Shown here: in pieces, positions 1 to 28,446 of the stretch | Numbering within the stretch: position 1 is the stretch's first letter | How the letters are laid out: each line of letters opens with the position of its first letter | Assembly: GCA_963625935.1 (NCBI GenBank) | Contig: CAVFVD010000009.1 | Coordinates: 4,094 to 68,093 of the forward strand | Length of the DNA stretch: 64,000 bases | Reading direction: 5' to 3' | Source: an uncultured Oscillospiraceae bacterium | Lineage (GTDB): Bacteria > Bacteroidota > Bacteroidia > Bacteroidales > Bacteroidaceae | Notes under the pieces: model-generated | What the model saw: only the letters and a program-made list of their open reading frames with translations | Databases searched by the model: none | What the model was told of the DNA's origin: nothing | Made by a program: the position numbers and the translations under genes

Positions 1-1042
1 TCAAAACCGAAGCGCATCTCTCCCGCCATGTGGTCGGGACGCTCAATGAAATACCCGTTGTAGTCCATTGGGAGACGCTTTGTCTTGCTCTCGCCTTTCT
101 CGCGATACTCCGCCGTGCGCTCCACGCCTACTGCGCTTGCGTCTATTGCCTGCGCGGACTTTTGCCCGTTCACGCGCTTGCGTATGACGATAATGTCGGA
201 CGTTACGGGCGTGCCGCCGAACGTCTTGTTGTTCAGTCTGAACGCGCCGATGAAGTCCGCGCCGCCCGCGCCCGTCACCCACTCGCGCAGGGCTTTGCCG
301 CTGTCAAGCGTGGCGTTGGACGTGATGAATATGCCTATGCCGCCCTCGCGCAGCTTGCGCACGTTCTTTGCGATGCAGAAGTCCTGTATCTTGCGGAATT
401 TCTTGGAAAGGTCGCCGTCGCCCGTGGTGTCGTTGACGCGCAAGTCCGCCACGAAAGGCACGTTGGTTATCGCCAAGTCCACGCTTCCGTTGGGGATGCG
501 CGTCTCCTCAAAGCCTTGTATCTCCACTTGCGCGTCGGGGTAGAGCAGGGAGAGGATGCCGCCCGACGTGCTGTCTATCTCTATGGCGCGGATGTCGCTC
601 CGCCCGCTCATCTCCGTGGGCATCTGCCCCAAGATGTTGCCTATGCCAGCCGAACCCTCCAAGACGCTGCCGCCCTTGAAGCCGAGCTTCGCCGCGATGT
701 CCCAAAGCGTGTCCACAACGCTCGCGGGGGTGTAGTACGCGCTCTTTGAGCTAAGCACGGCTTGCCCGTAGGCTTCCTCCCCGAGAAGCTCGCGTATCCT
801 TTTGTTGCGCTCGCGCTGCTTCCAGTCGCGGCTCGCTTCGTTGAACGCCGCGCCCAAGCCGCCCCAGCCGCTGAAGCGGCGAAGCACGCCCATCTGCTCG
901 GGCGTGGCGGTCTCGCCGCTCCCGAGCAACTCCTGCGCCAGCTCAATTGCCTTGATGTTGGCGTCAATGCGCGCGTCAACCGATTTCGGGGCGTGGTCTT
1001 CGCCGCGCTCCGAATGGTTGTTGCGTTTGTTCTTCCTTTCGC
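1..1042 (-). other. N6-adenine DNA methyltransferase module of the giant ORF (partial)
   Basis: Translation ...NIKAIELAQELLGSGETATPEQMGVLRRFSGWGGLG...VLEGSAGIGNILG (motif I, about 636-663) and DLAITNVPFVADL (motif IV, about 451-471). The frame is continuous with the giant ORF, and there is no ATG near its start. Confidence 0.75.
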
Positions 1043-4000
1043 TTAGTCCAGAAAGTCCGACTTGCAGAGACCCATTTTCCCGAGTGCCAAGTCCTCGTCC
1101 TCCAGCGTCAGCTCTTCCACTTTCTTGCCCAGTTCCTTGGCTACGGCTTCTTTCGCCGCCGCGTAGTCCTTGTTGTTGTCCACTTCCGTCGGTTGGCAGT
1201 CCTTCGGGGCGTACTCCCGCATGATGTCGTTCCAGTCCATTGTCTTGCTCTTTATTTGTTTCTGATGTGTCGGTCAAGCCTGCGAACAAGTCGCCCGCAG
1301 CCTGCCCCTCTTTTTCTTTTTTGCCGCCGTTCGCTTTCTTGTCAGAGGATTTTGGCGTTACTTTGCCACGCGGTTTGTCAGTGTGCCGCGCAGCTTGCAC
1401 TTCATTCGTCGGAGCTATAGCGCTTACGCCTCCGTCAGCTGACATCTCGTCGTACGCCGTCAAGACCCAGTTCTTGGCGGCTATTTTCTTGCCGCCCTCT
1501 CTGACGTTCTTGCGGATGGTGACGACCTTGCCGTCTTTCTTGAACACGACTTTGTCGCCGTTCTCAAACGAGACTTCGCCCGTCTTGATGATTTCGTCAA
1601 TGGCGCGCGCGGCTTCGCTCGCCGTGGGGAAGCTTTTCCCCTCCCCGACGTGCTTGCCCAGAATGTGGGCGAAACCGCCGCGCTCGTCTCCCCATACGAC
1701 ATCAATCTCGCCCACTCCGTCACGCGAGAACACCCCGAGCAAGTCTCCGCCTTTGCGTGAGGTCAAGAATGCAGCCGCTTCCTGCGGCTTTCCCTTGAAT
1801 TGGTCGTACACGTCGCCGAACGTTCCTTTGCCTACGGGTTTAATGCCCTCCGGGGCGGGAACGGCCTCCGGCTTCGTGGAATATTTGTATCCTGCAAACG
1901 CATCACTTCCTATATACGGGAAGAATACATTTTCCGCCCACTTGTTGGCTCTTTCAGCATCGCCGCCAAATGTATTGCGGATGATGTCACCCAGTGCGTG
2001 ATACCATTTATACGCTTCTTCCGTATCGCCCTTGTCAATGGCTTCTTTGTAGAACTTAGCCCAATTGTGTCCGTTCCCTTTCAAAACTTCCCCAATCAGC
2101 TCATCGTCCGTTCTCCTCTTTCCTTTTGCCGCGTTTGCTTCACGCTCTGCCTTGGCTTCCTCGTTATGCTTCGTCGCGGCTTCATCGGCAAAAGTAGCGT
2201 CTGCGCCCGTTTGGGCAAAGCCCGTGTCCGTCTGCTTCTGCTTCTCCTGCTCCTTGCGCCGCTCGTTGCGCTTGTCCTTGATAGCCTTTCCAGCCTTTTC
2301 CGCTTCGGCTTCCGCCTTGCTCTCCGCAGCGACCATCTCCGCTTGGGCGAAAACGTCCTTGCTCGGCTTGTCAAAGTTGGCGGTGTCAAAGGCTCGCACC
2401 TCGTCGTAAGGGGTAAGCCCCTCCGCATACTCTGCCATCTCGGGCAGGTCACGCGCCCCGTTGTAGAAAGCTTTGAGGTACGGGCGTACCGCTTCGCCCA
2501 AGTCGGCAATCATATCCTTTGCAAACTCGGCAAACTTACGCGCCCCCTTTTCTATGTGGTACACCGCCATCTCCGTGCCGATAGCGAGTATCTCGGGGTC
2601 AACGCCCATATTGAGCTGCCCGCGCAGCTTGGCTCTCATCCGCTTCTTCAGCTCCTCGTAACGCTCGTCCGTCACAAGCTTGTTGCCGCTCGGGTTTTCC
2701 TTGAGCTGCTCCGCCTTGGGCTGCTCCGCCTTGGTTTCGGACGTGTTCCCCTCTGCGGAATGCTCCGTTTTGGGCGCGTCCTTGGGCGCGGGGCCGTTCT
2801 TTGAAAGGTACTCCGCGTAGTCGTACGCCGTCTTTCCGAGGAAATACCCGTTTACCACATAGTCCACCTTGCGCGGGTGCGTCTCCTCCCAACGCCGCTG
2901 CTCCGCCCCGGACATGGCGTTCCACCTGCGCGGGTGCGGCTGGTCATAGGGTTTCTTCTCAAAGACGAGGTCGCCCGCCGCGTGGTGCTTCTCTATGTAC
3001 TCGGCGATGGTCATCGCGCCCTCTTCGCCAAATTTTACGGATTTCCCCAGTGCTTTGTCCGCAGACGACGCCTGCAGCGCGGTCTTCCCTTTGAGGAAAC
3101 CGTTGTGCTTCCGCTCAAGTTCCTTTTTCCTCTGCGCCTTGGCTTCCTCCGCCTCCTTGCGCTGCTGGTTGTCCTTGGCAGCCAAGAGGGTGAACCGCAA
3201 GTCGCTCAACTCCTCTGCGGCTTGGTTGACGCGCTTAATGTAGTCCGAGTATTCCGTCCGCAGTTCTTCGCCTGCCTGCTGTTCGCTCATCTCGCCCGCA
3301 GCCACCTTTTTGAGGAGCGCGTCGCGCTTCGCCCTGAACGCCGCGGCTTCGGGGAAGAGTTCCGCTTCCTCCGCCGTGTTGTAGTGCAAGGCATTGTCAA
3401 GGAGTTTCTCGCGCTTCTCCATCTCGCTGATGTCCGAATCCGCCGTCCATTCTTTGCGCTCGTACGCGGGCTTCTTCCCGCCGTCCTCCTCCTCGTGCGT
3501 CTCCGTCTTCACCGCGTCGCGCATGTCCTTGGCAGAGAGCGGCTGGTTGTCCGCCACGGCTTCCGGGTTCGCCGCTATCTCGGCGGCTTTCCGCGCGTCC
3601 TCTTCCGTGCGGAACATCCACCCGCCGCTCTTGCGGTCTTTCCATCCGCGTGCGGGGGCGAAACGCCCCTTGCCAGTCCGCTCCTTGGCAAACTCGCTGA
3701 CGGCGCGTGCCTGCTCCTCCGTCAGCTCCTTTTCAAAGGTGAGCAAATGCACATCGCTCGTCTTGCCTTTCTTGTTGGTGTAGGTCGCGGGAGCGATGGT
3801 GTAGCCCTTGCCCTCGGTTTGCTTGACCCCATCTTTTGCAGGAGATTTCTCGGAAATTTCTTGCACTTTTGGGGAATTATGGTCACTTTTGCCATCGGAT
3901 ATATCAGACGAATTGATACCGTGCAAGGCAAGCTGATTGTCGTCAGAGGTAGGCTTGTTCGAATCGTCAAGAGGTAATGACTCCTCGCTCTGCGCAACGG

Positions 4001-7000
4001 ATGCAGACTGATTTTCCACAGAAGTACTTCTATCTAAGACATTCGCGAGAATGTCACGATAAAGGGCAATACCTCCGTGAGGCTGAAACGCTGCGGTTTG
4101 AAGGGTATTGCCCTTCTTTATTTTGTCGGCCACAAATACCTCATGCACATACAAACGATTTTTGTTTGTATCTTGCATAGCTCTACAAAATACATAACAA
4201 CGTTCCCCTTTATAATTTATCGGGTATGCGAAATAATGGTTGTTTACTCCTTCTTGACGAACAAAGTCAGGTAATGTTCCGAGATATACAGCATTCTCAA
4301 AACCATCAACCAAAGACGTAATCGCATCAAGTTTTGCTTGCCCATAACGATGAGCAAGTGAGTCTTCCATTGATGTGTTGTTTATTTCCACCTCTCCTGC
4401 CTCCGTGTCGTAGAACACTGGTTCCGGGACATTTTCGTTCCACCATTTCTCTGCGGCTTTTCTTGCAGACATTTCGGCAGTAGCTACGATTTGTCCTTCT
4501 GCCACGTCAACGGCATAGGCATCGCGCAGCATTTCTCCACGACGTTCCTTTTCCTCGTCTGACATAGTACGAGGGTCATGCAGCGTTACTGTCTGTCTGG
4601 GTTCGGTATTCTGTGAGGATAGCGAATGTTCGCCAGCTTCCTCTGTTTCTCCACTGCGCCCATCAGCGTCTGCAGCTTCCACAGCTTCTTCTGCGCGTCG
4701 CTTCCGTTCTGCGACTGCATTGCTGACTGCGTCCTGTTGTTCTTTTCCTGTTGCATTTCTGAAATATTCGTTTACACCTTTGAGTATTTCCTCCTTTGAG
4801 CGCAAGCCGCCGCTGAACATATCGGTCTGACCGCTTGCGGGGGCTTCCGCCTCGTTGTTGTAGAGAGCGAAGACCTTGCGCAAGTCGCTCGGCTTGCCGC
4901 TGTTCAGCACATCGGCAAGGAGAAGCACTGTCGCGTCCGTCACGCGGCTGTCGCCGTACTCCTCGTCAAACAGCCCCTGCTCCCGCCCGTAGGGGGACAC
5001 AGCCACGCCGTCGCGGTATATTCCGGGGTGCGCCGTCCTCGCGCGGTACACAAGGTCAACCGCCGCGCCCAGCTCTGCGCCCAAGTCATACCCGCTCGCG
5101 GCAAATGCGCGGTTGTGCGCAATCTCCCCAAGGGCAAGCGTCACGCTCTGGCGCAGAACGGGCGTGCTTATAATCTGCCGCACCGCGTCGGGCGAGGACT
5201 GAAACACCTTGCCTATAAGCGTGTTCTCTATCAGCTCGCGCCCCGCCGCGCTTAGCGAGTTGCCCGTGCGCAGCGCGGGAAGCTCCATCTCGTTGATTAC
5301 CCCCGCTTCGAGCAATAGCTGCAAGGCGGAGTTAGCCGCCGCCCCGTCCGCGTAATAGTCCGAAAGGCGGTCATAACGGCTGATGTCGCCCACAATGCGG
5401 GCGAACACGTTGTCCGGGACGACCTTTCCGAGCTTCACGGCGTGTTCGGGCTTGCTCTGCGCTTTCTTGTCCTGCGCGTTGAAACGTGCAAAAGTCGCCG
5501 CGTCGTAAGGCAACGCCTCGTCCGGGACAAACACCACGCGCGGATGCTCCATCCCGTCCACCTGCTCGGGCGTGAAGCCGTACATCGCGCCGTACTCCTT
5601 AAGGTGCGCCACATACGCGCCGTCCGTGCCTTGGCGTGCCGCGAGGTCGCCCGACATTGTGCGGTTGTTTCCAGAAAGCACAATGCCGTCTCCGCTCACC
5701 ACGACGGGGGACTGCAACGCACGCCCGTCATACGCGTCCGCCATCTCGCGCACCCTGCGCTGCGCGTCCGCATCGCGCTTGTAGTCGCGGTCGTTCACGC
5801 TGCCGCCGTTCTCGTCCACGGGGAAGCCCTCCGTCTGCTCAAAGCCGTTTTCCACGTCGTGGCTCGCAGTAGCCGCGCCAGCTTCCGTGAGGACATAATG
5901 CCCGCGCAATACCGTTCCGTCCTCAAGCGTGACTGCATGCGCGTTGCCCACAGCCTTGCGCGACTTGTCCCATTTCTCCTTAATTTTCGGGTTTACCGCG
6001 TGCGTGCCGACCTCGGCTTGCTCGGCGGCTTGCTCGGCGGCAATGCGCTTGTCCTCCGCAAGCTGCTCTTTCGCCGCTTCCACGCGCTCATCGAACTTCT
6101 TTCTCTGCTCCTCGCGCTCCGCCACGACGACCTTGTCCTGCTGGCGTTTCACTTCTTCCCAGTAGGCAAGCTCTGCTTCCGCTTCCTTTTTCGCCGCTTC
6201 GTACCGCGCTTTCTCCGCCTTGTACTTCTCAATGTCTGTCCCCATTTTGGGCTTGCGCAGACCCTTGCCTTTCGCCTTTGCTTCCGCCTCCTTGCGCTTG
6301 GCTTCCACAAAAGCGTCGGCCTCCTCCCTGTCAAGCCCGCTGTCCTTGTACACATAGCGGTGCGTCCGCTCGGGCGTTGCGGCGGAAAAATCCGGCGTCA
6401 TACGCCCGTCCTTTTCCTGCTTCATCGGCATAGCGTCCTCTTCGGGCTGCGGAGTTTCCTCCGTGTCCGCTGCTGGCGCGGCGGCTTCGCCGTTCTCCTC
6501 GCCTTGGGCAATTGGTGCTTCCTCCGGCACGCTTTCGCCGTTTTCCGCAACGGCGGGCGTGTTTCCCTCCGCCTGCACGCCGTTCCCGTCTGCCGCGCTC
6601 TCGTCCGCGCGTTCCCAGTAAAGGTTGCCGTCCTCGTCCGTCACGCGCTGCAAAGCCGCGTCAAAGTCCGCTTTCTCCATACGCGCGGACATGCGCCCGT
6701 CTGCCATCGGCTCTTCGGTGTTCACCACCACGCCACCGTCCTCGTCTATGTCCACAATCTCTCCGCTCGTGCCGTCGGCGAGGACAAACGTCTGACCTTT
6801 CTTGTAGCGCGGCTGCCCGTGCACGGCGGCGGCTTCTTGGCTCTCCGCCGCTTTCTTCTCCTCGTCGCGCTGGCGCGTGGCTTCCTTGCGGGACTTGTCC
6901 GCCGCCTGCTCTATCTCGTCACGGCTTACGCGCTCTATGGTGTTCCCGCCATCGGCGGACACGTTCACGGTGCCGTCGGCGTTCTCCGTGTTGCCGTCTT

Positions 7001-9959
7001 TGTCGGCGGTCACCGTCACTTGCCGCGTGTTGCCGTCCTTGTCCGTCAGAGTGTAGGTCGCGCCCGCCGACAAGTCCGCCGTTCCGTCTATCATCCCCGC
7101 CGTGCGCTCGGCGTACTCCTTGCGCGTCTCGTCCGCCACACGGGCTTTTTCCTGCGCCGCGTCAATCGGCGTGTCCACCTTTGCAAGCGCGTCGGGCGAA
7201 ACCATCATCTTCTCGCCCGTGGCGCGGTCAACTACAATAAGCGACTGCGAACTCTTGTCCTTGTCAATCGTCCCGTCCGCGTTAAGCGCGACACTGCCGC
7301 CGATTACATACACGCCGCGTTCCGTCCCGTCCGGGTTGCGCTCGCGGAGCGTGCCGCCTATAATCGTGCCTGTGTCCTTGTTGGTCACCGCGTCCGTCTC
7401 CGCAGTGCGGGCGGCAACCTCGCGCTTCATTCCGTCTTTCGCGCGGGAAACCATCCCGTCAAAGCGTTTCTTGGCAAGCCCGTACTCCATCGCCGCGTTG
7501 AGCGCGGCTTCCTCCGCGCTGTCAATGTGGCTCGTCACCCATTTCTCCGCGTCGCCGATAAAGCCGTCCACGTCCTCCGCGTTGATGCCGAAAGCCTGCG
7601 CCACCTTGGCGCGTGCGTCGTCAAGGCGGTTCTTCGCGTCGTTCATCCCCTCTGCGCCCTCCGTGAGATAGCCCGCGTCTCCCGCGTCCTGCATATCGCA
7701 AAGCCACTCTGTGGCGCGGGTCGTCATGTCTTTCGCGCTCTCGCGCTGCTGCTCGCGCTCGGCTGCTTCCTTGCGCTCGGCTGCCACCGTGCCTCTGTAC
7801 ACTTGGGCGCGGATGCCGTATTTCGCGGCGGTGTTGCGCACCGCAAACGGAATGCTCTCGTCCGCCATAAAACTGTTGAGGGCGGCTGTCGCTTCCTCGT
7901 CCGTCCCACGCAGGAGTTTCTCGCGCACGTCCGTCCAGCGCGTTGCAAGAGCCGGGAACGCGCCTTTATATATAGCGTCGTCCATTCGTGAGAGGTCGCG
8001 CAACGCTTCCCGTCTGCGACCCCGGTAACCCGCCACGCTTAACGCGGAGCAGAAACCGCTCATCAAGCCCACGCCAAGGAACGTGTCTATGTTTATGTCC
8101 TTGTTGAAAACACCCGTGTTCTCCGCGCTGTCAAGCGTCATGTCGCCGACGGTCAGCGCGTTCTCTATGTTGCCGACAACCTCCTCGGCATACTCGCCTA
8201 TCGTGCCGTTGAACTTCGCACGTTTGAGGATTTCGTCCACGTTCTGTTTCCAATTGGAGCTGTTCACGTCACGGATAAAGTCCGCCACGGAGGAAAGGCG
8301 CATCTTGTCAGACAGCTTGCTGAGGGGCTTCACCTTGCCCAACACGCGTCCCGCCGTCTTGCCCGCCGCGCCAATCAGCGGGGCGAAATACTCGCCCACC
8401 ATCTCGCTGTGGTTCTCTATCGTCTGCGCCCCGAAAGCCTTTGCGTAGGCTGCGAAAGCGTTGTCCTCCGCGCCCTCCGTCCCTTTGAACACGATGTCGC
8501 CCTCAGGGGATATGTCGGGCTGTATCTCGCCCGTCATTCTGCCCATCGTGTCGCCCGCGACGCGCATCTGCCCCGTTGTCGCGGTCATCGTTGCTGCACT
8601 TGCCAAGTCGCCCGCCACTCTCGCGCCGAGCTTCTTCGCCATATACTTCTTTGTGGCTTTCTTCACGGCGGCTTTGCCGTACTTCCTCACAAGGTTGCGC
8701 ACCACCTTGCGCTGCAGCCCGTGTCCCAAGCCGCTCGCGGGGTTCAGTATCATTTCCACCATAAACGGCAGACTCTCCGCCGTCACGCCGCCCGCCTTGT
8801 AGCCGCGCCCTATCTTGCTCCCGTACGTGCCTTGCACATAGGCGTTGTAAGCCGCCGCGTCAAGCAGCTTGCGCTCATCGTCCGTGTATTCGTCCGTGCC
8901 TGCGTGTCGCACTGCGGAAAGAGTGGCACTCGCGCTCCTCGCGTCGCTCTCGCCCGCGTCATAGAATGACTTTTTCTTCAACGTGTCTACAATGCCGCGT
9001 CCCGCGCCCTTGAAAAAGCCGCGCGTCTCTCCGGCTTGCTTCGCCCCCCATTGCGCGGCGCGTCCCAACAAGCCGTCGCCAAACGTTTGCTTTGCCCCGC
9101 TCACGGCTCTTGCGGTGAACTTGTCGTCCTCTGCCGCCGCTTTCACTTCCCGGATGGTGTTGAGCGCGTCCTCCAATTCGGAAATGCGGGCTTCCACTTG
9201 CTGCATGTCGCTGCGTGCGCTCTTCTCAATCTCATCTCGCATTAATCCGGCGCGTACCGAGCTGCCGCCCCTCACCCGCTGCCACCACGGGCGGCTGTCT
9301 TGCTCCTTGTCTATCTCGTCGCTGATGCGTTCGCGGTCCTTGTAGGCGCGTGCAAGGCGTGCGCGCACGTCCTCCTCCGTGCCAAGGCGTGCGATGGCCC
9401 TTTCGGCGGCTTCACGCCTGTCAATGTCGCCCTGCGCCCAGTCCGCCGCAGCCGCGCTATCGTAGGTGTAGCCGTCCGTGTCCGCGTATCTTCGGGAAAT
9501 CTGCGGCTTGCCGTCGTTCCACGTCACGCCGTAGCCGTCCTCTTCCACGCGCTTGTTGGCGGGCTTGGAGCTGCTTGGGAAGCCGAGCGTGGTCTTCGCC
9601 ACGCCAAGCGGGTTGCGCTTGACGGCGGACAGCTTCTTGTCTGCCCGCTTGAAAACATCTCGCCCCTGGTCTATCGTGGCTTGTATGCTGCCGACGCTGA
9701 ACGGCACGGTCTCCTTTCTCGGCGTGCGCAGACGCTGCATGAACTCCGCGTAGGTGCTGCCTACGTCCGCGCCGCCCTCTTTGAACGTGTCGTAAACTCT
9801 CTTACGGTTGGCGTAATTGGCGTTCCCCAAAAAACCTTTTGTGAACTCCTCATAGGTTTGTTCGTATCCCCCGTCAGCCATTGCGTCATACAAACGCTTG
9901 AGCTGGCTTATTTGAATTCCCCCTCTCTTGTTCGGCGTTCCGCCGTTCTCGCTTCCCAT
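1..9959 (-). CDS. Giant polyvalent protein, at least 3,319 codons in window, 3' end off the left edge (ParB-like, barnase/EndoU-like and N6-adenine methyltransferase modules plus large unknown regions)
   Basis: ATG at 9959-9957. The reverse frame with codon low coordinate divisible by 3 stays open to position 1 in my manual translation. The track lists no ORF in that frame, as expected when there is no in-window stop. Motifs seen: VVVSGDGIVLSGNNRTMSGDLAARQG, GVFSRDGVGEIDVVWGDERGGFAHILGKH, EGSAGIGN, ITNVPF. Confidence 0.8.
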   Translation of the reverse strand, partial: MGSENGGTPNKRGGIQISQLKRLYDAMADGGYEQTYEEFTKGFLGNANYANRKRVYDTFKEGGADVGSTYAEFMQRLRTPRKETVPFSVGSIQATIDQGRDVFKRADKKLSAVKRNPLGVAKTTLGFPSSSKPANKRVEEDGYGVTWNDGKPQISRRYADTDGYTYDSAAAADWAQGDIDRREAAERAIARLGTEEDVRARLARAYKDRERISDEIDKEQDSRPWWQRVRGGSSVRAGLMRDEIEKSARSDMQQVEARISELEDALNTIREVKAAAEDDKFTARAVSGAKQTFGDGLLGRAAQWGAKQAGETRGFFKGAGRGIVDTLKKKSFYDAGESDARSASATLSAVRHAGTDEYTDDERKLLDAAAYNAYVQGTYGSKIGRGYKAGGVTAESLPFMVEMILNPASGLGHGLQRKVVRNLVRKYGKAAVKKATKKYMAKKLGARVAGDLASAATMTATTGQMRVAGDTMGRMTGEIQPDISPEGDIVFKGTEGAEDNAFAAYAKAFGAQTIENHSEMVGEYFAPLIGAAGKTAGRVLGKVKPLSKLSDKMRLSSVADFIRDVNSSNWKQNVDEILKRAKFNGTIGEYAEEVVGNIENALTVGDMTLDSAENTGVFNKDINIDTFLGVGLMSGFCSALSVAGYRGRRREALRDLSRMDDAIYKGAFPALATRWTDVREKLLRGTDEEATAALNSFMADESIPFAVRNTAAKYGIRAQVYRGTVAAERKEAAEREQQRESAKDMTTRATEWLCDMQDAGDAGYLTEGAEGMNDAKNRLDDARAKVAQAFGINAEDVDGFIGDAEKWVTSHIDSAEEAALNAAMEYGLAKKRFDGMVSRAKDGMKREVAARTAETDAVTNKDTGTIIGGTLRERNPDGTERGVYVIGGSVALNADGTIDKDKSSQSLIVVDRATGEKMMVSPDALAKVDTPIDAAQEKARVADETRKEYAERTAGMIDGTADLSAGATYTLTDKDGNTRQVTVTADKDGNTENADGTVNVSADGGNTIERVSRDEIEQAADKSRKEATRQRDEEKKAAESQEAAAVHGQPRYKKGQTFVLADGTSGEIVDIDEDGGVVVNTEEPMADGRMSARMEKADFDAALQRVTDEDGNLYWERADESAADGNGVQAEGNTPAVAENGESVPEEAPIAQGEENGEAAAPAADTEETPQPEEDAMPMKQEKDGRMTPDFSAATPERTHRYVYKDSGLDREEADAFVEAKRKEAEAKAKGKGLRKPKMGTDIEKYKAEKARYEAAKKEAEAELAYWEEVKRQQDKVVVAEREEQRKKFDERVEAAKEQLAEDKRIAAEQAAEQAEVGTHAVNPKIKEKWDKSRKAVGNAHAVTLEDGTVLRGHYVLTEAGAATASHDVENGFEQTEGFPVDENGGSVNDRDYKRDADAQRRVREMADAYDGRALQSPVVVSGDGIVLSGNNRTMSGDLAARQGTDGAYVAHLKEYGAMYGFTPEQVDGMEHPRVVFVPDEALPYDAATFARFNAQDKKAQSKPEHAVKLGKVVPDNVFARIVGDISRYDRLSDYYADGAAANSALQLLLEAGVINEMELPALRTGNSLSAAGRELIENTLIGKVFQSSPDAVRQIISTPVLRQSVTLALGEIAHNRAFAASGYDLGAELGAAVDLVYRARTAHPGIYRDGVAVSPYGREQGLFDEEYGDSRVTDATVLLLADVLNSGKPSDLRKVFALYNNEAEAPASGQTDMFSGGLRSKEEILKGVNEYFRNATGKEQQDAVSNAVAERKRRAEEAVEAADADGRSGETEEAGEHSLSSQNTEPRQTVTLHDPRTMSDEEKERRGEMLRDAYAVDVAEGQIVATAEMSARKAAEKWWNENVPEPVFYDTEAGEVEINNTSMEDSLAHRYGQAKLDAITSLVDGFENAVYLGTLPDFVRQEGVNNHYFAYPINYKGERCYVFCRAMQDTNKNRLYVHEVFVADKIKKGNTLQTAAFQPHGGIALYRDILANVLDRSTSVENQSASVAQSEESLPLDDSNKPTSDDNQLALHGINSSDISDGKSDHNSPKVQEISEKSPAKDGVKQTEGKGYTIAPATYTNKKGKTSDVHLLTFEKELTEEQARAVSEFAKERTGKGRFAPARGWKDRKSGGWMFRTEEDARKAAEIAANPEAVADNQPLSAKDMRDAVKTETHEEEDGGKKPAYERKEWTADSDISEMEKREKLLDNALHYNTAEEAELFPEAAAFRAKRDALLKKVAAGEMSEQQAGEELRTEYSDYIKRVNQAAEELSDLRFTLLAAKDNQQRKEAEEAKAQRKKELERKHNGFLKGKTALQASSADKALGKSVKFGEEGAMTIAEYIEKHHAAGDLVFEKKPYDQPHPRRWNAMSGAEQRRWEETHPRKVDYVVNGYFLGKTAYDYAEYLSKNGPAPKDAPKTEHSAEGNTSETKAEQPKAEQLKENPSGNKLVTDERYEELKKRMRAKLRGQLNMGVDPEILAIGTEMAVYHIEKGARKFAEFAKDMIADLGEAVRPYLKAFYNGARDLPEMAEYAEGLTPYDEVRAFDTANFDKPSKDVFAQAEMVAAESKAEAEAEKAGKAIKDKRNERRKEQEKQKQTDTGFAQTGADATFADEAATKHNEEAKAEREANAAKGKRRTDDELIGEVLKGNGHNWAKFYKEAIDKGDTEEAYKWYHALGDIIRNTFGGDAERANKWAENVFFPYIGSDAFAGYKYSTKPEAVPAPEGIKPVGKGTFGDVYDQFKGKPQEAAAFLTSRKGGDLLGVFSRDGVGEIDVVWGDERGGFAHILGKHVGEGKSFPTASEAARAIDEIIKTGEVSFENGDKVVFKKDGKVVTIRKNVREGGKKIAAKNWVLTAYDEMSADGGVSAIAPTNEVQAARHTDKPRGKVTPKSSDKKANGGKKEKEGQAAGDLFAGLTDTSETNKEQDNGLERHHAGVRPEGLPTDGSGQQQGLRGGERSRSQGTGQESGRADAGGRGLGTRENGSLQVGLSGLSERKNKRNNHSERGEDHAPKSVDARIDANIKAIELAQELLGSGETATPEQMGVLRRFSGWGGLGAAFNEASRDWKQRERNKRIRELLGEEAYGQAVLSSKSAYYTPASVVDTLWDIAAKLGFKGGSVLEGSAGIGNILGQMPTEMSGRSDIRAIEIDSTSGGILSLLYPDAQVEIQGFEETRIPNGSVDLAITNVPFVADLRVNDTTGDGDLSKKFRKIQDFCIAKNVRKLREGGIGIFITSNATLDSGKALREWVTGAGGADFIGAFRLNNKTFGGTPVTSDIIVIRKRVNGQKSAQAIDASAVGVERTAEYREKGESKTKRLPMDYNGYFIERPDHMAGEMRFGF
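1043..1240 (-). CDS. 65-aa ORF in the +1 frame inside the giant ORF (possible overprinted or recoded gene)
   Basis: ATG at 1240 with an A-rich leader and TAA at 1043. Its third codon positions are strongly G/C, like the other genes here, whereas the giant-ORF frame over the same bases is A/T-rich at third positions and Gly/Arg/Ser/Gln-rich. Confidence 0.45.
   Translation of the reverse strand: MDWNDIMREYAPKDCQPTEVDNNKDYAAAKEAVAKELGKKVEELTLEDEDLALGKMGLCKSDFLD
1450..1830 (-). other. Barnase/EndoU-like (PBECR/DUF3519-looking) module of the giant ORF
   Basis: FGDVYDQFKGKPQEAAAFLTSRKGGDLLGVFSRDGVGEIDVVWGDERGGFAHILGKHVGEGKSF...VVFKKDGKVVTIRKN. The family assignment is from memory of polyvalent-protein domains and has not been searched. 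Confidence 0.45.
3825..4805 (-). other. AT-richer in-frame domain cassette inside the giant ORF
   Basis: Composition drops visibly compared with the flanks. The segment encodes ...WWNENVPEPVFYDTEAGEVEINNTSMEDSLAHRYGQAKLDAITSLVDGFENAVYLG...GERCYVFCRAMQDTNKNRLYVHEVFVADKI... Confidence 0.6.
5520..5960 (-). other. DdrB/ParB-like nuclease-fold domain of the giant ORF
   Basis: ASHDVENGF...VNDRDYKRDADAQRRVREMADAYDGRALQSPVVVSGDGIVLSGNNRTMSGDLAARQG. Confidence 0.6.
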
Positions 9960-9983
9960 ATTGCTCTTTGTCCGTTTCTTTTG

Positions 9984-11462
9984 TTACAAGTGAAAACCTC
10001 TGAAATCCGGCTTTCCGTTTCCCTTTCCCGCGCCCTTTCCCGCGCCCTTTCCGCTATTGCGCTGCTGCTTGCGCTTCCTCTCCTGCTCGCCGAGCTTGGC
10101 GGGCGTGGAGCGGCTCTGCGTGCGCGTCACCACCTTTTGGTGGGTGTTCGCGTCATAGCCCGAGGACGTGCTTACGGGGTCGGGGGTGAGGTCGTAGCCC
10201 AACTCTGACGCGCGTTTGTTGCGCTCGCTCTCGTTGTTGAACGTTTCGTATTCCCCCGTCTGGTCGTTGTACACGGTGTACGTCTTCTTGCCGCCGCGTC
10301 CTCCGCCGCTTGCCGTGCCGCCGTTGTTGATGCTGTTCGCGCTGGCTCTGTCCTTTGCCGCCTTGGCATTGGCTGCCGCCGCTTTCGCCGCGTTCAGAGC
10401 CGCTTCTGAGCTTGCTCCCATCAGACGGGCGTTCGCGTACGCGTCATAGTACGCCGCTTTAGACGTTTCACCCGCCGCGCGTGCTTTGAGCAATTCCGTC
10501 TGCGCCGCTGCGATGTCGTCCTTTCTCCTCTGCTCGTTCGCTTCCTTTTCCGCCTTTTGCTTGTCAAGGGCTGCTTGCCGCTCCTCCGCTTTGTCCGCCG
10601 CTTCTTTCGCGTCGTCGTACTGCTGCGCCCTGAAAAGCCCGTCATAGTATTCTTTGCGCTTGCTCTCGCGCTCTTTCGCAATCTTGTCCCAACGGTCTCT
10701 CGCCTGTTGCGTGGATGTGTTCTTCCCCGTGTAGGAGTTGAGCGCGCCCTTGCCCGTGAAATAAAGGTTTGCCAAGGCGGAGATGGCGTCGCCCACTGAC
10801 GTGATGATAAGCTCGCGCTTCTTTTTCTTCCGCTCCTCTTCTGTCAGTTCTTCGTCACCGCTGTCTTTCATCATTTCCCGGTACATTTCCGCCCAAGACT
10901 TCTTCACGGGCTTCGTGTCCGCGCCGTACATTGGCGCGGCGGTTTGCGGCGCGTTGTTGTCTGCGGGCGGCGTTTGCGCGGCGGGTATCTGCTCTTCGCC
11001 CGCGCCCTCGTATCCTCTTGCCGCGCGTCCCGTCAATACGGGCGCGGGCGTGTTGTCTGCGGGCTGCGTTTGCGCGGCGGGTATCTGCTCTTCGCCCGCG
11101 CCCTCGTATCCTCTTGCCGCGCGTCCCGTCAATACGGGCGCGGGCGTGTTGTCTGCGGGCTGCGTTTGCGCGGCGGGTATCTGCTCTTCGCCCGCGCCCT
11201 CGTATCCTCTTGCCGCGCGTCCCGTCAATACGGGCGCGGGCGTGTTGTCTGCGGGCTGCGTTTGCGCGGCGGGTATCTGCTCTTCGCCCGCGCCCTCGTA
11301 TCCTCTTGCCGCGCGTCCCGTCAATGCGGGCTGCGGCGCGTTGTTGTCTGCGGGCTGCGTTTGCGCGGCTTCTGCGGGAAGCTGCGGCGTTGCAGCCGCG
11401 CTCCCGCCGTTGTTGTCGTCCTCGTTCGTGCCGAGTATGAGGTCTTTCGTGCTTGTTCCCAT
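9984..11462 (-). CDS. Repeat-bearing Lys/Glu/Ala-rich protein (492 aa), function unknown, possibly virion or ejected
   Basis: Track ORF. The N-terminus has four 32-aa repeats, followed by a coiled-coil-like charged region. It sits immediately upstream of, and co-oriented with, the giant ORF. Confidence 0.8.
   Translation of the reverse strand: MGTSTKDLILGTNEDDNNGGSAAATPQLPAEAAQTQPADNNAPQPALTGRAARGYEGAGEEQIPAAQTQPADNTPAPVLTGRAARGYEGAGEEQIPAAQTQPADNTPAPVLTGRAARGYEGAGEEQIPAAQTQPADNTPAPVLTGRAARGYEGAGEEQIPAAQTPPADNNAPQTAAPMYGADTKPVKKSWAEMYREMMKDSGDEELTEEERKKKKRELIITSVGDAISALANLYFTGKGALNSYTGKNTSTQQARDRWDKIAKERESKRKEYYDGLFRAQQYDDAKEAADKAEERQAALDKQKAEKEANEQRRKDDIAAAQTELLKARAAGETSKAAYYDAYANARLMGASSEAALNAAKAAAANAKAAKDRASANSINNGGTASGGGRGGKKTYTVYNDQTGEYETFNNESERNKRASELGYDLTPDPVSTSSGYDANTHQKVVTRTQSRSTPAKLGEQERKRKQQRNSGKGAGKGAGKGNGKPDFRGFHL
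10944..11366 (-). repeat. 96-bp tandem repeat, 4 copies plus a partial copy (three identical), coding for AAQTQPADNTPAPVLTGRAARGYEGAGEEQIP
   Basis: Direct reading of the DNA and the translated protein. Confidence 0.9.
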
Positions 11463-11476: not shown

Positions 11477-11956
11477 TTAAAATGGCATGCTGCTTGCCGC
11501 TTGCGACACTCCCTGCGTCGCGCCTTGTATCTGCTGCTGACGCTGCTGCTCGTTTTGCAGCAACTGCTGGTCATACGCTTGGTCTTGGGCGCGGTAAGTG
11601 TTTTCTATCTGGTCTTTGCGGCTGTCGGCCTGCTGGTTAATCTGCGCCATCGTGTCGCTTATCACCTTGTTGTTGTTGGCTTTCGCCGCAGCCACGCTCT
11701 CCTCCGAGCCGCCGCCCACAGCCGCCGCGCCCGCCGCGCTCTTGTTCTGCTGGCTTATAAGCTCGCGCGTCTGCGTGAGCAAGGCTTGCGCGTCAGCCCG
11801 CTGCGTTGCGTCCTCGTTGTACCTCGCATCGTACCAGTCTTGGTTCTTCTGCTTGGCCTCTTCTATCATTTTCTTCTGCTTCTTCGCGGACTTCGCGCCC
11901 ATTATGCCGCCCGCGATGCTGCCGACTGCGGCGACAGCGCTGCCTATCATTCCCAT
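11477..11956 (-). CDS. 159-aa protein with N-terminal glycine-zipper hydrophobic segment and Gln-rich tail
   Basis: MGMIGSAVAAVGSIAGGIMGAKSAKK...QQLLQNEQQRQQQIQG. Track ORF, co-oriented with the next two genes. Confidence 0.7.
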   Translation of the reverse strand: MGMIGSAVAAVGSIAGGIMGAKSAKKQKKMIEEAKQKNQDWYDARYNEDATQRADAQALLTQTRELISQQNKSAAGAAAVGGGSEESVAAAKANNNKVISDTMAQINQQADSRKDQIENTYRAQDQAYDQQLLQNEQQRQQQIQGATQGVSQAASSMPF

Positions 11957-12044: not shown

Positions 12045-12395
12045 ATGGCAATAGGAAAGAAGACGGGCGGGCGCAAGAAAGGCACGCCCAACAAGCTTAC
12101 CTCCGTGGCACGCGGGATGATTAAGACTTGGCTCAACGCGCACAACAGCCCTGCGGGCGAGGACGGGGAAACCCTGCTTATGAGGGACTTCAACGAGCTT
12201 GACGCTCGCGAGAGGGTGCGCGTCTCCGCCGAGTTCGTCCGCATCGTGATGCCGCACAACCTCAACATTGACAAGGAGGACTGCGACATGACCACGGAGC
12301 GCAGGCTCGCAATGCTCGCGGGGGAGACTGAGGAAAACGAAAAAGAGGACAACTATGGAGATGACACTGACTGCGACGAGGACGAATGTCTTTGA
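12045..12395 (+). CDS. Small basic/acidic protein with GGRKKGTPNK N-terminus (DUF5681-like or small-terminase-like guess)
   Basis: MAIGKKTGGRKKGTPNKLTS... with an acidic C-terminal tail. Confidence 0.6.
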   Translation: MAIGKKTGGRKKGTPNKLTSVARGMIKTWLNAHNSPAGEDGETLLMRDFNELDARERVRVSAEFVRIVMPHNLNIDKEDCDMTTERRLAMLAGETEENEKEDNYGDDTDCDEDECL

Positions 12396-12804
12396 GGAGG
12401 TCGCGAAGACAACAGCGTACACGGGGAGCAAAGCCGTGGGGGACGAGACCGCCTACGAGCGCATGCTCGCAAAGGACGCTGACCGCGAGATGCTCGCCCG
12501 TTTCTGGGAGGAGACCTGCGCGGACGCGTGCGACACGCTGCGGCGGCTTGTCGTGACGGACGAGGACGACGGCGAGACGTTCTCACTCACGCTCGCCCTT
12601 TCCGCTTCGTTTGACACGGCGTTGGAGAAGAGCATACAAAAGGACTTCTTCTCCTATTTCGTGCTTAGCGTCACGGGAAAGTGGTTCGCGATAGCAAACA
12701 AGGAGGAAGCGGGCGGGTACGGAAAGGCGGCGGCTGACACGCTTCTCGGGCTGCACCGCAAGGCACTCCTCAAACGCCGCCCGCAAAGGCCTGAATACAA
12801 CTGA
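12355..12804 (+). CDS. Acidic protein, paralogue A of a triplet, unknown function
   Basis: C-terminal pattern FSLTLAL...WFAIANKEEA...RRPQRP is shared with the next two ORFs. Confidence 0.65.
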   Translation: MEMTLTATRTNVFEEVAKTTAYTGSKAVGDETAYERMLAKDADREMLARFWEETCADACDTLRRLVVTDEDDGETFSLTLALSASFDTALEKSIQKDFFSYFVLSVTGKWFAIANKEEAGGYGKAAADTLLGLHRKALLKRRPQRPEYN

Positions 12805-12824
12805 CAACTTAAAAGGAAAAAGAA

Positions 12825-13340
12825 ATGGCAGAACAGAAGAAGACGTTGACTTGCACGCTCGAGGTTAAGGAGCTGATGTATGACGTGATGAACAAGGCGT
12901 ACCTTACGGGACAGGCGCGCGAAGCGGAGGGGACGGGCTATGAGGCCGCGTCCAATATGCAGGCAAGCGAGGACAACGAGAACAGCTACCAGCTGCGCCG
13001 CTCGCTCGCCAACGCGTTCTCCGCGCTCAAGTCGCTCCTCGGGGAGTACCTTGACGAGGACAGCACAACGACAACCAACAAAATCCAGTCGTCCATTGAC
13101 AACAACAAGCAGCTGACCCTCGCTTTCAAGCTCCCGTCAAACTACAACAACGCGTCCGCCGACAGCCTTGGCAACGGCATACACGCCTACCTTGTGGACA
13201 CCACGCTTTCAGAGTGGTTCTCCATCACCAACAAGGCTGACGCGGAACAGTACGCTTCCCATTCGGCGGCAAGCCTTGAAATCGTGAAACGCGCCCTCTA
13301 CAAGCGCAGCCGCCCAACCCGCCCAATCTATGAGGTGTGA
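12825..13340 (+). CDS. Acidic protein, paralogue B of a triplet, unknown function
   Basis: LTLAFKLP...WFSITNKADAEQY...RSRPTRP. Confidence 0.7.
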   Translation: MAEQKKTLTCTLEVKELMYDVMNKAYLTGQAREAEGTGYEAASNMQASEDNENSYQLRRSLANAFSALKSLLGEYLDEDSTTTTNKIQSSIDNNKQLTLAFKLPSNYNNASADSLGNGIHAYLVDTTLSEWFSITNKADAEQYASHSAASLEIVKRALYKRSRPTRPIYEV

Positions 13341-13933: not shown

Positions 13934-16717
13934 TCACCTCATCTTGCCGCCGAACCTCGGCAGCACCTCCGCCGAAAAGCCCGACAAGGTCTCGTCTATG
14001 CAGAGCCAAGTGGTGTACAGCAAGCGGAAATACTTGTACGGCGTGCCGCTGAAGCCGCGCATATAATGCCCCTCCGCCGCCCAAACCGGGTGCCAGTCCC
14101 TGCCGCGCAGGTCGTTCGTCCCGTAAAGCACTTGCTTCTGCTCTCTGCCGTTCGCCTCGTTCCACCCGATGGCGCGGAAATCGCCGCGCTGCGCCAACTC
14201 CGATATGGTCTTGCGCGTGTCGGGCGCGCCGAACTTGAACGGGCGCGTCAAGAGGAACATCCTGCTCTGCGCGTTTATGGGGACATCCCTGTCTTGGTCA
14301 ACGCTCAGGTTAAGCACCACGCCGTCCCTTTTCTGCGCGATACATTCCGGGTAGGAGTTGATGTCAAACAAATACGGGTTGTCGCACATTCCCCAAGAGC
14401 GCGTCCGCAGCGAATACACATAGGCGTACTGGTGTTTTGTGTTGTACACCGTCACGCGCTGGTGCGCGTAGTCGTACATAAGGTTGCAGTCCGTGAGGTA
14501 GTCGGCGAACGCCGCTATTTGGAAGCTGTCCTTGCCGAGGAGCTTGCACGCTCCGGGCATTTCGCCCAAGTCAAGCGTCCCGAAGTTGTCAAGCATTTCG
14601 CTCACGCATTCCACGCTTGACCCGCTGACGTGCATAATGCCGCGCTCCGTGGCGAAAAGCACGCTCCCGTCAAGCTGCGCCACCGCGTCTTGCCCAAGGC
14701 ACACGTCACGCGCGAACGGCTGCTTTGACGAGAAGCCGCCAGTTGACGAGGTCTCCAACGCCCACACGCCGTCCGAACACAAGGCGTATAGCGGGAACTG
14801 TCCGAACTGCCCTTGCGACAACGCCTTTGCAGCCGATGTCACGCTGATGATTTCTCCCGCGCCGATGGTGTTGATGTTCGTCACGGGGAACATAAACGGG
14901 TTGTTCACCTCGGACGTGTACAGCTTGTTCGGGACGCTCATCTCCACGCTTGCGGAAATCACCTCCGGCTCTTGGGTCGTCCCCGGTATCGGCCTGTCCC
15001 CTACGTTCTGCGCTTCGTCCGCCCATCCGTCCATGCGCCCGTGCAGCCCGTCAAAGAAATACGAGCCGTTGAGGAATTTGTGGCGCGTCAGTTTCGCACA
15101 ACGGGAGCGCGTGTGTTGCACGTTGCCGTCCTTGTCCATCATCTCCTCAACCACCATCACTTTCTTCGCGTACGGGCTGTGGTGGTAGAACCACACAAGC
15201 GGAGTGTACCACCCCGCATTCGTCCAAGTGCCGCACTGCACAAGTTGCTCCGCCCCGCCGTCCGGCTCTATCCACACATACACGCTCACGCGGCACGGGT
15301 CGTTGTAATTGTCCGGGGCGTGCAGCGGTGTTTCCGCGCCGCCGTTGTAATGCACGCACCCGTCCGTGTGCGGGAAAAGGCATCGCGCGGACGCGCCCTT
15401 GTATATGCTCTTCTCTATGTTGTAAAGGTTCATCCGCGAGTTGTACGCCACCGCCCCTCTCGGGCGCAGCTCATCGTGGCTGTCGTAGTCGTCCGTCATG
15501 ACCTCGCGGTTCAGCAAAGACTGCAAATAGTCGTCCGCCACATCCACTTCCACCCTCTCGCCCTGCTTCAAGTCGTCAAGGGATATGCTGCTCAAAAGGA
15601 AGAAATTGGATGCTTCCGTAAAGCCCTTTTTCACCTCATCGTCACCCTTCTGCGGAAGCGAGCAATATGTGCCTGTCGGCGCATAAGGTATGTGCCGCGC
15701 GTAAACGACCTCTTGCTTGGTACTCGTGTTGCCGCTCGCGCTTGTCGTCTGCACGAGTGCGGAAGCCCTGTACACGCCGTAGTGCATGCGTTGCGAGTCC
15801 CACCCGTTGGTCAAAGGCTCAACGCGGTTCGTGAACTCGCCGCCTTGGTCATAGTACCTGATGCCCTCGGTGACGAAAATGTCCACGCTCTGCACGATGT
15901 CCGCCCATTCTTTCAGCTTGGCAAGACCGTCTGTAACCTGCATATCCAGTTTCGCCACCACGGCACTTGTGGTGAATGTCAGGAACTGGTAGCCATCGTC
16001 TTTTTTCCTCCACTCCCCCTTGACCATCGGCACGAAGCCCGCGTTCGGTATCATAAGCACGGGCGCGGAGTGCATTGTCAGCGTGCCGTCAAAAAGCCGG
16101 AATGCATAGCGCACAAAGAAAGGGAACATGAATTTCCCTTTCTTCGTAGCGTAATTGGCAATAAACTTGTTCGCAGCCGATTGCGCGGCGAGCTTTCCCT
16201 CGTCTATAACTACCGAAGCAAAGTAAGTGCCTTTGTCATAATATTTATACGGATTTTCCTCTATCTGCTGCTCCACCGTTCCGCGCAGCCCGAACGATAT
16301 GCCCAGCTCCGGCAGATGGCTGCCAAGAGCTTTGTACGCATCGCTCTTCCAAAGGTAGTAGTACGGCTTGTGCGTGGTGTCCTCAATAAAGAGGAGCGTG
16401 TTACCAAGCACCGTGATGCGCCCCGGACCGCCGACTTGCCCTATCACGTTAAGCACCGCCCTGCTCCCGTCCTCCGTTTCCGTCCAGCAAAGCTCAAAAT
16501 TCCCGTTGACGACAATGTAGTGCTTGAATTTCGCGGTCTCGTGCACCGCCAATATTTTGCAGTCGCTGTCTAACCTCATGACGCACTCCCCCTTCAGCAC
16601 GGGGCGCAGCCCGCCAACGTCCGGGACGGCGTTCATGCACACCGACAGCTCGCCGTCCGTGCAGAGCCTGTCGGGCGTGGCGGACGTGACCCCGCCGTAA
16701 CCCACCTCTTGTCTCAT
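13934..16717 (-). CDS. Large hypothetical protein (927 aa), possibly virion-associated
   Basis: Long clean track ORF. I recognise no catalytic motifs. Confidence 0.85.
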   Translation of the reverse strand: MRQEVGYGGVTSATPDRLCTDGELSVCMNAVPDVGGLRPVLKGECVMRLDSDCKILAVHETAKFKHYIVVNGNFELCWTETEDGSRAVLNVIGQVGGPGRITVLGNTLLFIEDTTHKPYYYLWKSDAYKALGSHLPELGISFGLRGTVEQQIEENPYKYYDKGTYFASVVIDEGKLAAQSAANKFIANYATKKGKFMFPFFVRYAFRLFDGTLTMHSAPVLMIPNAGFVPMVKGEWRKKDDGYQFLTFTTSAVVAKLDMQVTDGLAKLKEWADIVQSVDIFVTEGIRYYDQGGEFTNRVEPLTNGWDSQRMHYGVYRASALVQTTSASGNTSTKQEVVYARHIPYAPTGTYCSLPQKGDDEVKKGFTEASNFFLLSSISLDDLKQGERVEVDVADDYLQSLLNREVMTDDYDSHDELRPRGAVAYNSRMNLYNIEKSIYKGASARCLFPHTDGCVHYNGGAETPLHAPDNYNDPCRVSVYVWIEPDGGAEQLVQCGTWTNAGWYTPLVWFYHHSPYAKKVMVVEEMMDKDGNVQHTRSRCAKLTRHKFLNGSYFFDGLHGRMDGWADEAQNVGDRPIPGTTQEPEVISASVEMSVPNKLYTSEVNNPFMFPVTNINTIGAGEIISVTSAAKALSQGQFGQFPLYALCSDGVWALETSSTGGFSSKQPFARDVCLGQDAVAQLDGSVLFATERGIMHVSGSSVECVSEMLDNFGTLDLGEMPGACKLLGKDSFQIAAFADYLTDCNLMYDYAHQRVTVYNTKHQYAYVYSLRTRSWGMCDNPYLFDINSYPECIAQKRDGVVLNLSVDQDRDVPINAQSRMFLLTRPFKFGAPDTRKTISELAQRGDFRAIGWNEANGREQKQVLYGTNDLRGRDWHPVWAAEGHYMRGFSGTPYKYFRLLYTTWLCIDETLSGFSAEVLPRFGGKMR

Positions 16718-17729: not shown

Positions 17730-17907
17730 ACAAAACAACAGTCATAGGGTAATGCGCCAATGTGAGAATGTTGGTCGCGCCGCAAAACTCGTACCGCGTG
17801 GTGATTGTAGCGGCGCACATTCCGTTCGTCACATTCACCGCCCTCCGCGTACCCCCCCCATTGTCAAGCGGTTGCGGCGGTGCTACGCGTGTCAGTCGGA
17901 AGTACAT
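17719..17907 (-). CDS. Micro-ORF 1 (62 aa), contains a G8 tract and overlaps the methyltransferase stop
   Basis: MYFRLTRVAPPQPLDNGGGTRRAVNVTNGMCAATITTRYEFCGATNILTLAHYPMTVVLYEY. Confidence 0.4.
   Translation of the reverse strand: MYFRLTRVAPPQPLDNGGGTRRAVNVTNGMCAATITTRYEFCGATNILTLAHYPMTVVLYEY
17852..17859 (-). repeat. G8 homopolymer, tract 1
   Basis: Read directly: GACAATGGGGGGGGTACGCGG on the coding strand. Confidence 0.95.
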
Positions 17908-28438: not shown

Positions 28439-28446
28439 TTGAGTGT

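Follow-up and report, generated by a model that had tools for sequence, protein, structure and literature searches.

A giant polyvalent DarB-like gene in a Bacteroidales prophage and its probable role in virion-delivered antirestriction

The stretch of DNA analysed here (the window; 64,000 nucleotides, positions 4,094 to 68,093 of contig CAVFVD010000009.1, assembly GCA_963625935.1) holds the right part of a prophage, and its left end lies inside a giant gene on the minus strand. We conclude that this gene probably belongs to a temperate phage that has a P22-type portal and resides in a Bacteroidales chromosome, and that it encodes a polyvalent protein of ~6,190 residues with a likely role in virion-delivered antirestriction. 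The identity of the gene is assigned with high confidence; delivery by the virion and the antirestriction mechanism are put forward as likely, with more reserve. The protein is a large new member of the already described polyvalent, DarB-like class and not a new kind of system. What sets it apart is a fixed N-terminal module, a gp14-like cassette beside the portal gene, no processing peptidase found and cassette exchanges in frame that can be traced with unusual clarity.

The giant frame is a real, conserved coding sequence. Re-translation from the ATG at 9959-9957 (CAAT ATG GGA AGC GAG, giving MGSENGG) to base 3 yields 3,319 codons with zero stops and leaves bases 2-1 as an incomplete codon. 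Stops number 23, 63, 92, 97 and 115 in the remaining five frames of positions 1-9959. With a stop-codon frequency of 3.5%, taken from base composition, the chance of an open frame of this length is ~1e-51. The GC content at second and third codon positions (GC2, 0.39-0.48; GC3, 0.72-0.88, over most of the length) resembles that of neighbouring genes. An earlier reading of the same DNA (the first-pass annotation) had claimed a reverse frame of at least 3,319 codons from this ATG and had named an in-frame stop as what would overturn it; none is present. It had also explained why the frame was missing from the list of open reading frames (ORFs), namely that it lacks a stop inside the window, and this is correct because the listing omits ORFs that run off the source. 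Antisense shadow ORFs on the plus strand are listed in its place, as had been pointed out, for example 5442-7991 (849 aa).

The predicted domain order is an N-terminal module with LPD14, then ddrB-ParB, LPD3, two unnamed modules (A and B), PBECR1 and a DarB-type adenine methyltransferase (Table 1). LPD14, LPD3 and PBECR1 all lie above their Pfam cut-offs and within the one uninterrupted frame, and PHROGs assigns aa 2209-3317 to 'DarB-like antirestriction' (E 5e-171) and aa 2995-3266 to a DNA methyltransferase family. The proposal of a polyvalent protein is borne out by the Pfam search that the first-pass annotation had suggested, which returned polyvalent-associated families and, just under the cut-off, ParB, while the methyltransferase is recognised by PHROGs. 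That annotation had also seen two PBECR/LPD-looking modules, of which one PBECR domain survives in the window, the other families recognised being LPD14 and LPD3. The N6-adenine methyltransferase it placed at the C terminus is indeed one, but sits in the middle of the full-length product.

Motif conservation adds to these assignments. The methyltransferase motifs I (EGSAGIGN, nt 636-659) and IV (ITNVPF, nt 453-470) are invariant in 58-61 relatives, and the H-I-L/I-x-K-H motif of PBECR1 is kept in relatives. The ParB assignment of the window copy is borderline: the first-pass annotation had proposed the domain at a motif that it quoted, and the Pfam score there falls just below the cut-off, whereas the homologous block of a close relative (P0126, below) scores 34.7 bits against 27.6. 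The window block also aligns to P1 DdrB (E 7e-5), and its motif is kept as SGNNRT or SGNGRT in 38 relatives. Modules A and B are predicted with high confidence by AlphaFold2 (AF2) in a model of aa 1990-2720 (predicted local distance difference test, pLDDT, >90 and >95, respectively). Neither is covered by a Pfam model, and a PDB search with the AF2 model gave no match, with the proviso that AF2 models were searched whole and weak single-domain similarities may have escaped. Module B is 41% identical to residues 1342-1480 of gp75 from phage Bcep22. The only strongly hydrophobic segment in the window part of the protein by hydropathy, aa 622-645, falls within LPD14. No internal repeats were found by self-blastp, the PLxRFG motif that gives its name to Klebsiella phage homologues is absent from the giant protein, NCBIfam has no match for the window proteins, and neither the window protein nor its continuation in a relative has a match by sequence search of the PDB or contains an SLT, lysozyme, lytic transglycosylase or peptidase domain.

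The remaining 3' part of the gene, ~2,870 codons, lies beyond the left end of the window and is described from two relatives. The IMG/VR viral contig L012 is 96.8% identical to window positions 1-2696 at the nucleotide level (2,696-nt overlap). Its frame extends 2,872 codons past the window's end through ResIII/SNF2, Helicase_C, MuF_C and LPD38 domains, and stops 36 bases before a P22-like portal gene. P0126 (5,894 aa), recovered by an exhaustive HMMER search, is the same protein as in L012; three swapped blocks apart, it shares 93-97% identity with the window protein, and its continuation also carries ResIII, SNF2-rel_dom and Helicase_C. When the window part is extended by the continuation from P0126, the product comes to ~6,189 aa, or ~684 kDa. 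The L012 helicase aligns to that of P1 DarB (26% identity, E 2e-17). The SNF2/helicase module expected to the left of the window is seen in L012, a relative 96.8% identical over the overlap. An exact-DNA scan of viral contigs for window DNA gave no match, a look-up of the 927-aa product of a neighbouring gene returned only one 6.9 kb Logan contig, and one of the neighbouring 492-aa product returned no record. Because the native contig could not be extended by these look-ups, the evidence for the continuation is that of L012 and P0126.

The giant gene is the third member of a conserved cassette. Its order is a 159-aa gp14-like gene, a 492-aa repeat-protein gene, the giant gene and, as seen in relatives, the portal gene. 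The two preceding genes had been recognised as co-oriented, one encoding a Gly-zipper and the other a repeat protein, and both are confirmed. The 159-aa protein scores 25.3 bits against Pfam T7_gp14 (cut-off 27; profile positions 5-152 of 187), and this family is also hit by 12 of the 14 homologues taken from related loci (best E 3.8e-7); the gp14-like profile finds nothing in the PDB. No family match was obtained for the 492-aa protein. As far as the retrieved DNA of related loci reaches, the giant gene is flanked by homologues of the 159-aa protein in 35 loci, of the 492-aa protein in 24 and of the portal in 31, L012 included.

Within the 492-aa gene, a 96-nt tandem repeat (32 aa) spans 10946-11369 in 4.4 copies of 97% identity. 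Most proteins of the same 90% cluster are ~394 aa long, and the window copy therefore seems to have gained repeat units. This gene and the giant gene share a reading frame and are separated by TAA plus 8 codons (9960-9986), such that readthrough would fuse both.

Giant ORFs related to this one, 5,200-6,991 aa long, come from 56 contigs of IMG/VR and from Prevotellamassilia, Leyella, Bacteroides and Muribaculaceae genomes, and the gene takes up 29-31% of the sequence in relative contigs of 63-66 kb. The best-conserved stretches across 67 related loci are aa 800-950, module A, module B and the methyltransferase. Relatives carry InPase, Kinase-PolyVal, PBECR2/3, LPD13 or Zeta-toxin modules instead of those of the window, and module A occurs in other proteins shuffled beside InPase, kinase and PBECR domains. 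Three viral contigs have interrupted copies. A single in-frame TAG at the same position in L020 (9839-9841) and L051, two independent contigs, splits the ORF into 2,801 and 3,796 codons with no start codon directly after it, and a frame shift lies at ~10437-10630 of L059. These could be nonsense mutations, a true split or readthrough.

Comparison with P0126 reveals a mosaic of near-identical and exchanged blocks (Table 1). The ParB block looks like an allelic replacement of one module in an otherwise near-identical gene. The unrelated block coincides with a sharply bounded, in-frame island of low GC, ~960 nt long and carrying LPD3, in which GC3 is 0.33-0.42 versus 0.75-0.88 in the flanks. No donor for this cassette was found among the 67 related loci, phage records or plasmid records. 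Where the window protein carries a 262-aa insert, L012 and P0126 have ~36 aa. The GC3 of the insert is as high as that of its flanks, and it is therefore not obviously foreign.

LPD14 and a module of wide conservation lie in the first ~1,300 residues, which the first-pass annotation could match to nothing. A search with residues 300-1050 hits 705 clusters (50% identity level), of which 345 reach E 1e-30 or lower. In the 150 top-ranking matches the aligned part always falls at residues ~200-1100, and the proteins, whose median length is 4,572 aa, are as long as 6,743 aa. LPD14 aside, most of the N-terminal ~1,000 aa is without a Pfam model. Helices predominate in the AF2 model of aa 1-1150, alongside three small beta domains (mean pLDDT 65.5), and its BFVD matches are confined to the first segments of giant homologues from uncultured podoviruses. 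A T7 gp15/gp16-like fold for this part is not supported, there being no PDB match and no BFVD match other than to the homologous giants. From its fixed position and its conservation we infer that the N-terminal part is a packaging/ejection module. A stronger version of this proposal, which we offer tentatively and regard as doubtful, is that the N-terminal ~1,000 residues form a dedicated capsid-targeting and ejection 'chassis' that would work with the gp14-like and mid-size proteins, the unprocessed chain of >600 kDa threading the podovirus tail and effector cassettes being swapped in frame behind it; these residues keep one position throughout the ~700 clusters of proteins of 3,000-6,700 aa. 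If true, phages would have in the chassis an equivalent of polymorphic toxins, in which a trafficking domain is combined with a variable toxin, but one without the MPTase usual in the polyvalent class.

Placing the protein in that class follows from several shared features. Polyvalent proteins are large polypeptides, often >2,000 aa, that fuse two or more domains of a polyvalent set, are encoded in phage or conjugation gene neighbourhoods and pass physically into the recipient cell along with the DNA (PMC5512222). Like those described by Iyer et al. (2017), the giant chain holds LPD14, a borderline ddrB-ParB, LPD3, PBECR1 and an N6A methylase, with an SNF2 helicase, MuF_C and LPD38 in the relatives' continuation, and shares with them a virion-gene neighbourhood and module shuffling. 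It differs in its length of ~6,190 aa, large even for the class, and in the absence of Pfam models for modules A and B and for most of the N-terminal ~1,000 aa. The first-pass annotation had left the element as phage or conjugative. The phage alternative is upheld by the gp14-like gene, the portal in relatives and the prophage genes, and the conjugative one is not, no conjugation genes being seen.

A close precedent is P1 DarB, an antirestriction protein internal to the phage head. DarB-like dyads combine an SF2 helicase with an EcoKI/TaqI-type N6-adenine methyltransferase that has an AdoMet motif and a catalytic N-x-P-F motif, for which the window protein has EGSAGIGN and TNVPF, and they guard incoming DNA in cis against type I restriction. 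The adenine methyltransferase is homologous to residues 72-275 of DarB (30% identity over 214 aa, E 8e-19) and precedes a superfamily 2 (SF2)/SNF2 helicase in the same order, the helicase being seen in a near-identical relative. The P1 DdrB-related ParB block is fused into the same chain in the window protein. P1 darB adjoins the portal gene prt, in divergent orientation (L068 10469-19021), which echoes the adjacency of giant gene and portal in Bacteroidales phages. Unlike the 2,255-aa DarB, however, the giant protein is almost three times longer and has its methylase-helicase dyad in mid-protein, and the window phage differs from P1 in portal type, in morphotype and in a host from Bacteroidota.

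Giant 'DarB-like antirestriction' proteins are also known from Lessievirus podophages, namely Bcep22 gp75 (4,602 aa) and JC1 gp69 (4,515 aa). From module B onward, across methyltransferase and helicase, the L012 protein is collinear with Bcep22 gp75 (29% over 1,664 aa, E 7e-154), a second alignment reaching into the C-terminal part (24% over 909 aa, E 6e-40). JC1 gp69 was found in CsCl-purified virions by mass spectrometry with 51 unique peptides, as were the proteins of 196 and 510 aa encoded immediately ahead of it (PMC9144972). This is the strongest outside evidence that the giant protein may be packaged. As in the window cassette, the JC1 giant gene follows two genes for smaller virion proteins, and it occupies a very large share of a temperate genome of ~60-65 kb (22%, versus ~29-31% in the window relatives). 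In contrast, the N-terminal 2,400 aa of the window protein are unrelated to the Bcep22/JC1 proteins by blastp, and the Lessievirus giant gene stands at the end of the tail module and not beside the portal.

Among isolated phages the closest is the temperate Bacteroides phage BKO1-TP3 (PQ571269). It has the same gene order, gp57 (159 aa), gp56 (371 aa), gp55 (5,553 aa, annotated as DarB-like) and gp54 (portal). Its gp55 is 59.5% identical over matched stretches containing the methyltransferase and 33% identical over part of the N-terminal module. It is ~640 aa shorter than the window protein and has other modules outside the shared blocks, and the GC content differs (43% versus 58-59%). The main text of the phage's description is without DarB or antirestriction and does not discuss the giant gene (PMC12694917). 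Both phages share a block consisting of a ~900-aa ORF and small ORFs on the opposite strand.

Taken together with the methylase-helicase dyad model of Iyer et al. (PMC5512222) and the P1 DarB work cited there, these comparisons suggest how the protein may act. It would be produced late, packed into the capsid with the 159-aa and 492-aa proteins and expelled through the tail, ahead of or together with the DNA. In the new host the SNF2-type motor would move the methyltransferase along the entering DNA, which would be methylated or shielded in cis against restriction, as by P1 DarB. Nucleic acids or defence factors of the host may be the targets of the ParB-like nuclease/NTPase and of the two RNase-type modules, PBECR1 and MuF_C. 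Packaging and ejection would fall to the conserved N-terminal ~1,000 residues, a base onto which effector cassettes would be swapped without loss of frame. Delivery with the DNA to counter host defences had been suggested from the gene layout, and the relatives now make this suggestion better supported.

Several results weigh against this interpretation. That the giant protein is in the virion, is ejected and is enzymatically active is argued by analogy with relatives, and the helicase half of the window gene is likewise predicted from relatives 94-97% identical over the overlap. The zincin-like MPTase is the main processing hub of the polyvalent class, albeit not universal (PMC5512222); MPTase-PolyVal has no match in the window protein or the L012 continuation, and no HExxH motif occurs in the window part. 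LPD36 usually precedes the methylase in polyvalent proteins (Iyer et al. 2017, PMC5512222), whereas tiles covering aa 2553-3319 have no LPD36 match at E up to 1, and what precedes the methylase is a low-complexity linker. A Foldseek search of the PDB with the aa 1-1150 model gave nothing significant (best E 0.24), the 159-aa and 492-aa proteins have no blastp similarity to the virion proteins beside Bcep22 gp75, and no integrase was found in the window.

The giant protein might instead be foremost a structural ejection device, either a counterpart of T7 gp16 or a tape-measure-like trans-envelope conduit built with the gp14-like and 492-aa proteins, its enzymes being passengers. Its gene is the third and largest after a gp14-like gene, and the cassette recalls the T7 order gp14-gp15-gp16 in that its first product is small, gp14-like and glycine-rich in the N-terminal helix and is followed by two progressively larger proteins. 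The mostly helical N-terminal module of ~750 aa, at a fixed position in 705 protein clusters, and the one hydrophobic helix within LPD14 would also suit such a device. However, the 159-aa protein narrowly misses the Pfam threshold for gp14, Foldseek returned neither gp15 nor gp16 nor any other solved structure for aa 1-1150, and no lytic transglycosylase or peptidase domain was found. Moreover, it is the methyltransferase-helicase region and not the N terminus that is most conserved across the family. A structural ejection role is compatible with the data, without fold support, and could coexist with the preferred interpretation; as the foremost function of the protein we consider it possible but unlikely.

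Two further readings dispense with delivery altogether. The gene could work within the lysogen or the infected cell, its product serving defence or exclusion in the manner of restriction-modification or of DISARM/BREX. Methylase-helicase pairs are central to these systems too, BFVD labels homologous entries 'Type I restriction enzyme' and the helicase part weakly matches DISARM DrmD. Yet that match, confined to the L012 continuation, reaches 19.8 bits versus an NCBIfam cut-off of 610, and a DISARM or resident-defence identity was rejected on this ground. The gene also lies within a late/structural block, from internal-virion gene to portal, in all relatives. Its ddrB-ParB, PBECR1, MuF_C and LPD38 domains are those of polyvalent proteins and not restriction-modification parts, and its direct homologues are P1 DarB and Bcep22 gp75, with JC1 gp69 being virion-associated. 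We judge an intracellular role improbable. Still less probable is that no gene is expressed here and that the frame either decays without function in a defective prophage or arises by artefact from GC-rich sequence. That no integrase or attachment site was found in the window and that some relatives have a TAG or frame shift could be expected of a remnant, but a remnant would hardly combine 3,319 codons without a stop, catalytic motifs invariant in ~60 relatives, 93-97% identity to independent metagenomic copies with cassettes exchanged in frame, and the GC3 pattern of coding sequence. A virion-delivered antirestriction protein thus stays our preferred interpretation.

Table 1. Features of the giant gene, its comparison with P0126 and surrounding genes (nucleotide positions in the window).
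Feature	Residues (aa)	Position (nt)	Strand	Evidence or remark
Giant polyvalent DarB-like gene, N-terminal 3,319 codons (~54%)		3..9959	-	Open frame, Pfam and PHROG matches
Conserved N-terminal module	300-1050	6810..9062	-	Mostly helical; includes LPD14; small beta domains aa 865-1116
LPD14 (PF18827)	513-650	8010..8423	-	Pfam 72.8-78.1 bits (cut-off 27); 3.5e-20
ddrB-like ParB domain (PF18763)	1363-1473	5541..5873	-	Pfam 26.9 bits (cut-off 27.6), borderline; motif SGNNRT
In-frame low-GC cassette, carries LPD3	~1720-2040	3840..4802	-	GC 45.8%, GC3 0.33-0.42
LPD3 (PF18798)	1832-1937	4149-4466	-	Pfam 38.9 bits (cut-off 27); 1e-9
Unnamed module A	~2040-2165	3465..3842	-	Beta-beta-alpha-beta-beta-alpha fold; in ~50/67 relatives
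Window-specific insert	~2159-2420	2700..3485	-	Long helix and small alpha/beta domain; not in L012, P0126 or 67 loci
Unnamed helical module B	~2421-2580	2220..2699	-	In ~55/67 relatives
PBECR1 (PF18809), predicted barnase/EndoU-type RNase	2744-2839	1443..1730	-	Pfam 51.9-55.2 bits (cut-off 27.6); 1e-13
Low-complexity linker rich in Gly, Arg, Ser, Gln	~2850-2990	990..1412	-	GC3 0.38-0.47
DarB-type N6-adenine DNA methyltransferase, cut at window edge	~2995-3319	3..977	-	PHROG 5.8e-55 and DarB alignment
Block compared with P0126	27-1275			~93% identical
Block compared with P0126 (ParB block)	1276-1723	4791-6133		~50% identical
Block compared with P0126	1724-2052			Unrelated
Block compared with P0126	2053-2158			97% identical
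Block compared with P0126	2159-2420			Only in window protein, not in P0126
Block compared with P0126	2431-3319			~97% identical
159-aa T7-gp14-like internal virion (ejection) protein, first cassette gene		11477..11956	-	Pfam T7_gp14; N-terminal glycine-zipper helix
492-aa protein, second cassette gene		9984..11462	-	N-terminal 32-aa tandem repeats, charged helical C-terminal part
C5 cytosine DNA methylase		17892-19217	-	Pfam DNA_methylase 2.3e-52
CI-like repressor		28646-29398		

Beyond the cassette, the prophage encodes SSB, DUF6291, a YqaJ exonuclease and RecT, as well as a C5 cytosine DNA methylase and a CI-like repressor (Table 1). With the N6-adenine enzyme of the giant protein, it thus encodes at least two DNA methyltransferases of different types. 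Host genes begin at 32145 with a major facilitator superfamily (MFS) transporter, TamB, Omp85, elongation factor G (EF-G) and S7; the EF-G shares 93-94% identity with sequences labelled Bacteroidales, Alloprevotella and Prevotellamassilia. Prophage and host DNA meet near 31.5-32.1 kb (region 28000-32144), where GC dips to 0.50-0.51. No tRNA gene that could serve as attachment site is present in the window. In BKO1-TP3 the integrase gene sits just upstream of the 159-aa gene, unlike in the window.

Upstream of the cassette, two adjacent small plus-strand ORFs at 12355-13340 are mutually paralogous (phrog_35482, phrog_19255) and face a conserved 927-aa protein on the minus strand (13934-16717; phrog_32516, E 1e-195). 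The same arrangement is found in BKO1-TP3 as gp34 with gp35-38. BKO1-TP3 also has a reverse transcriptase beside a second very long ORF, gp44 (2,638 aa; L070 23818-33318), and a diversity-generating retroelement probably acts on this ORF. Nothing corresponding to gp44 or the reverse transcriptase was seen in the prophage part inside the window.

As a discovery, the giant gene adds one member and some detail to a described class. The divergent ParB allele, the low-GC LPD3 cassette and the 262-aa insert form a natural series of in-frame replacements, which is usable for mapping individual modules to the host defences they counter. As the related BKO1-TP3 is in culture, packaging, processing and methylation target of such proteins are accessible to experiment. 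Gut Bacteroidales phages of this type devote close to one third of a ~64 kb genome to a single gene, and this share therefore implies strong selection for delivering many anti-defence activities together.

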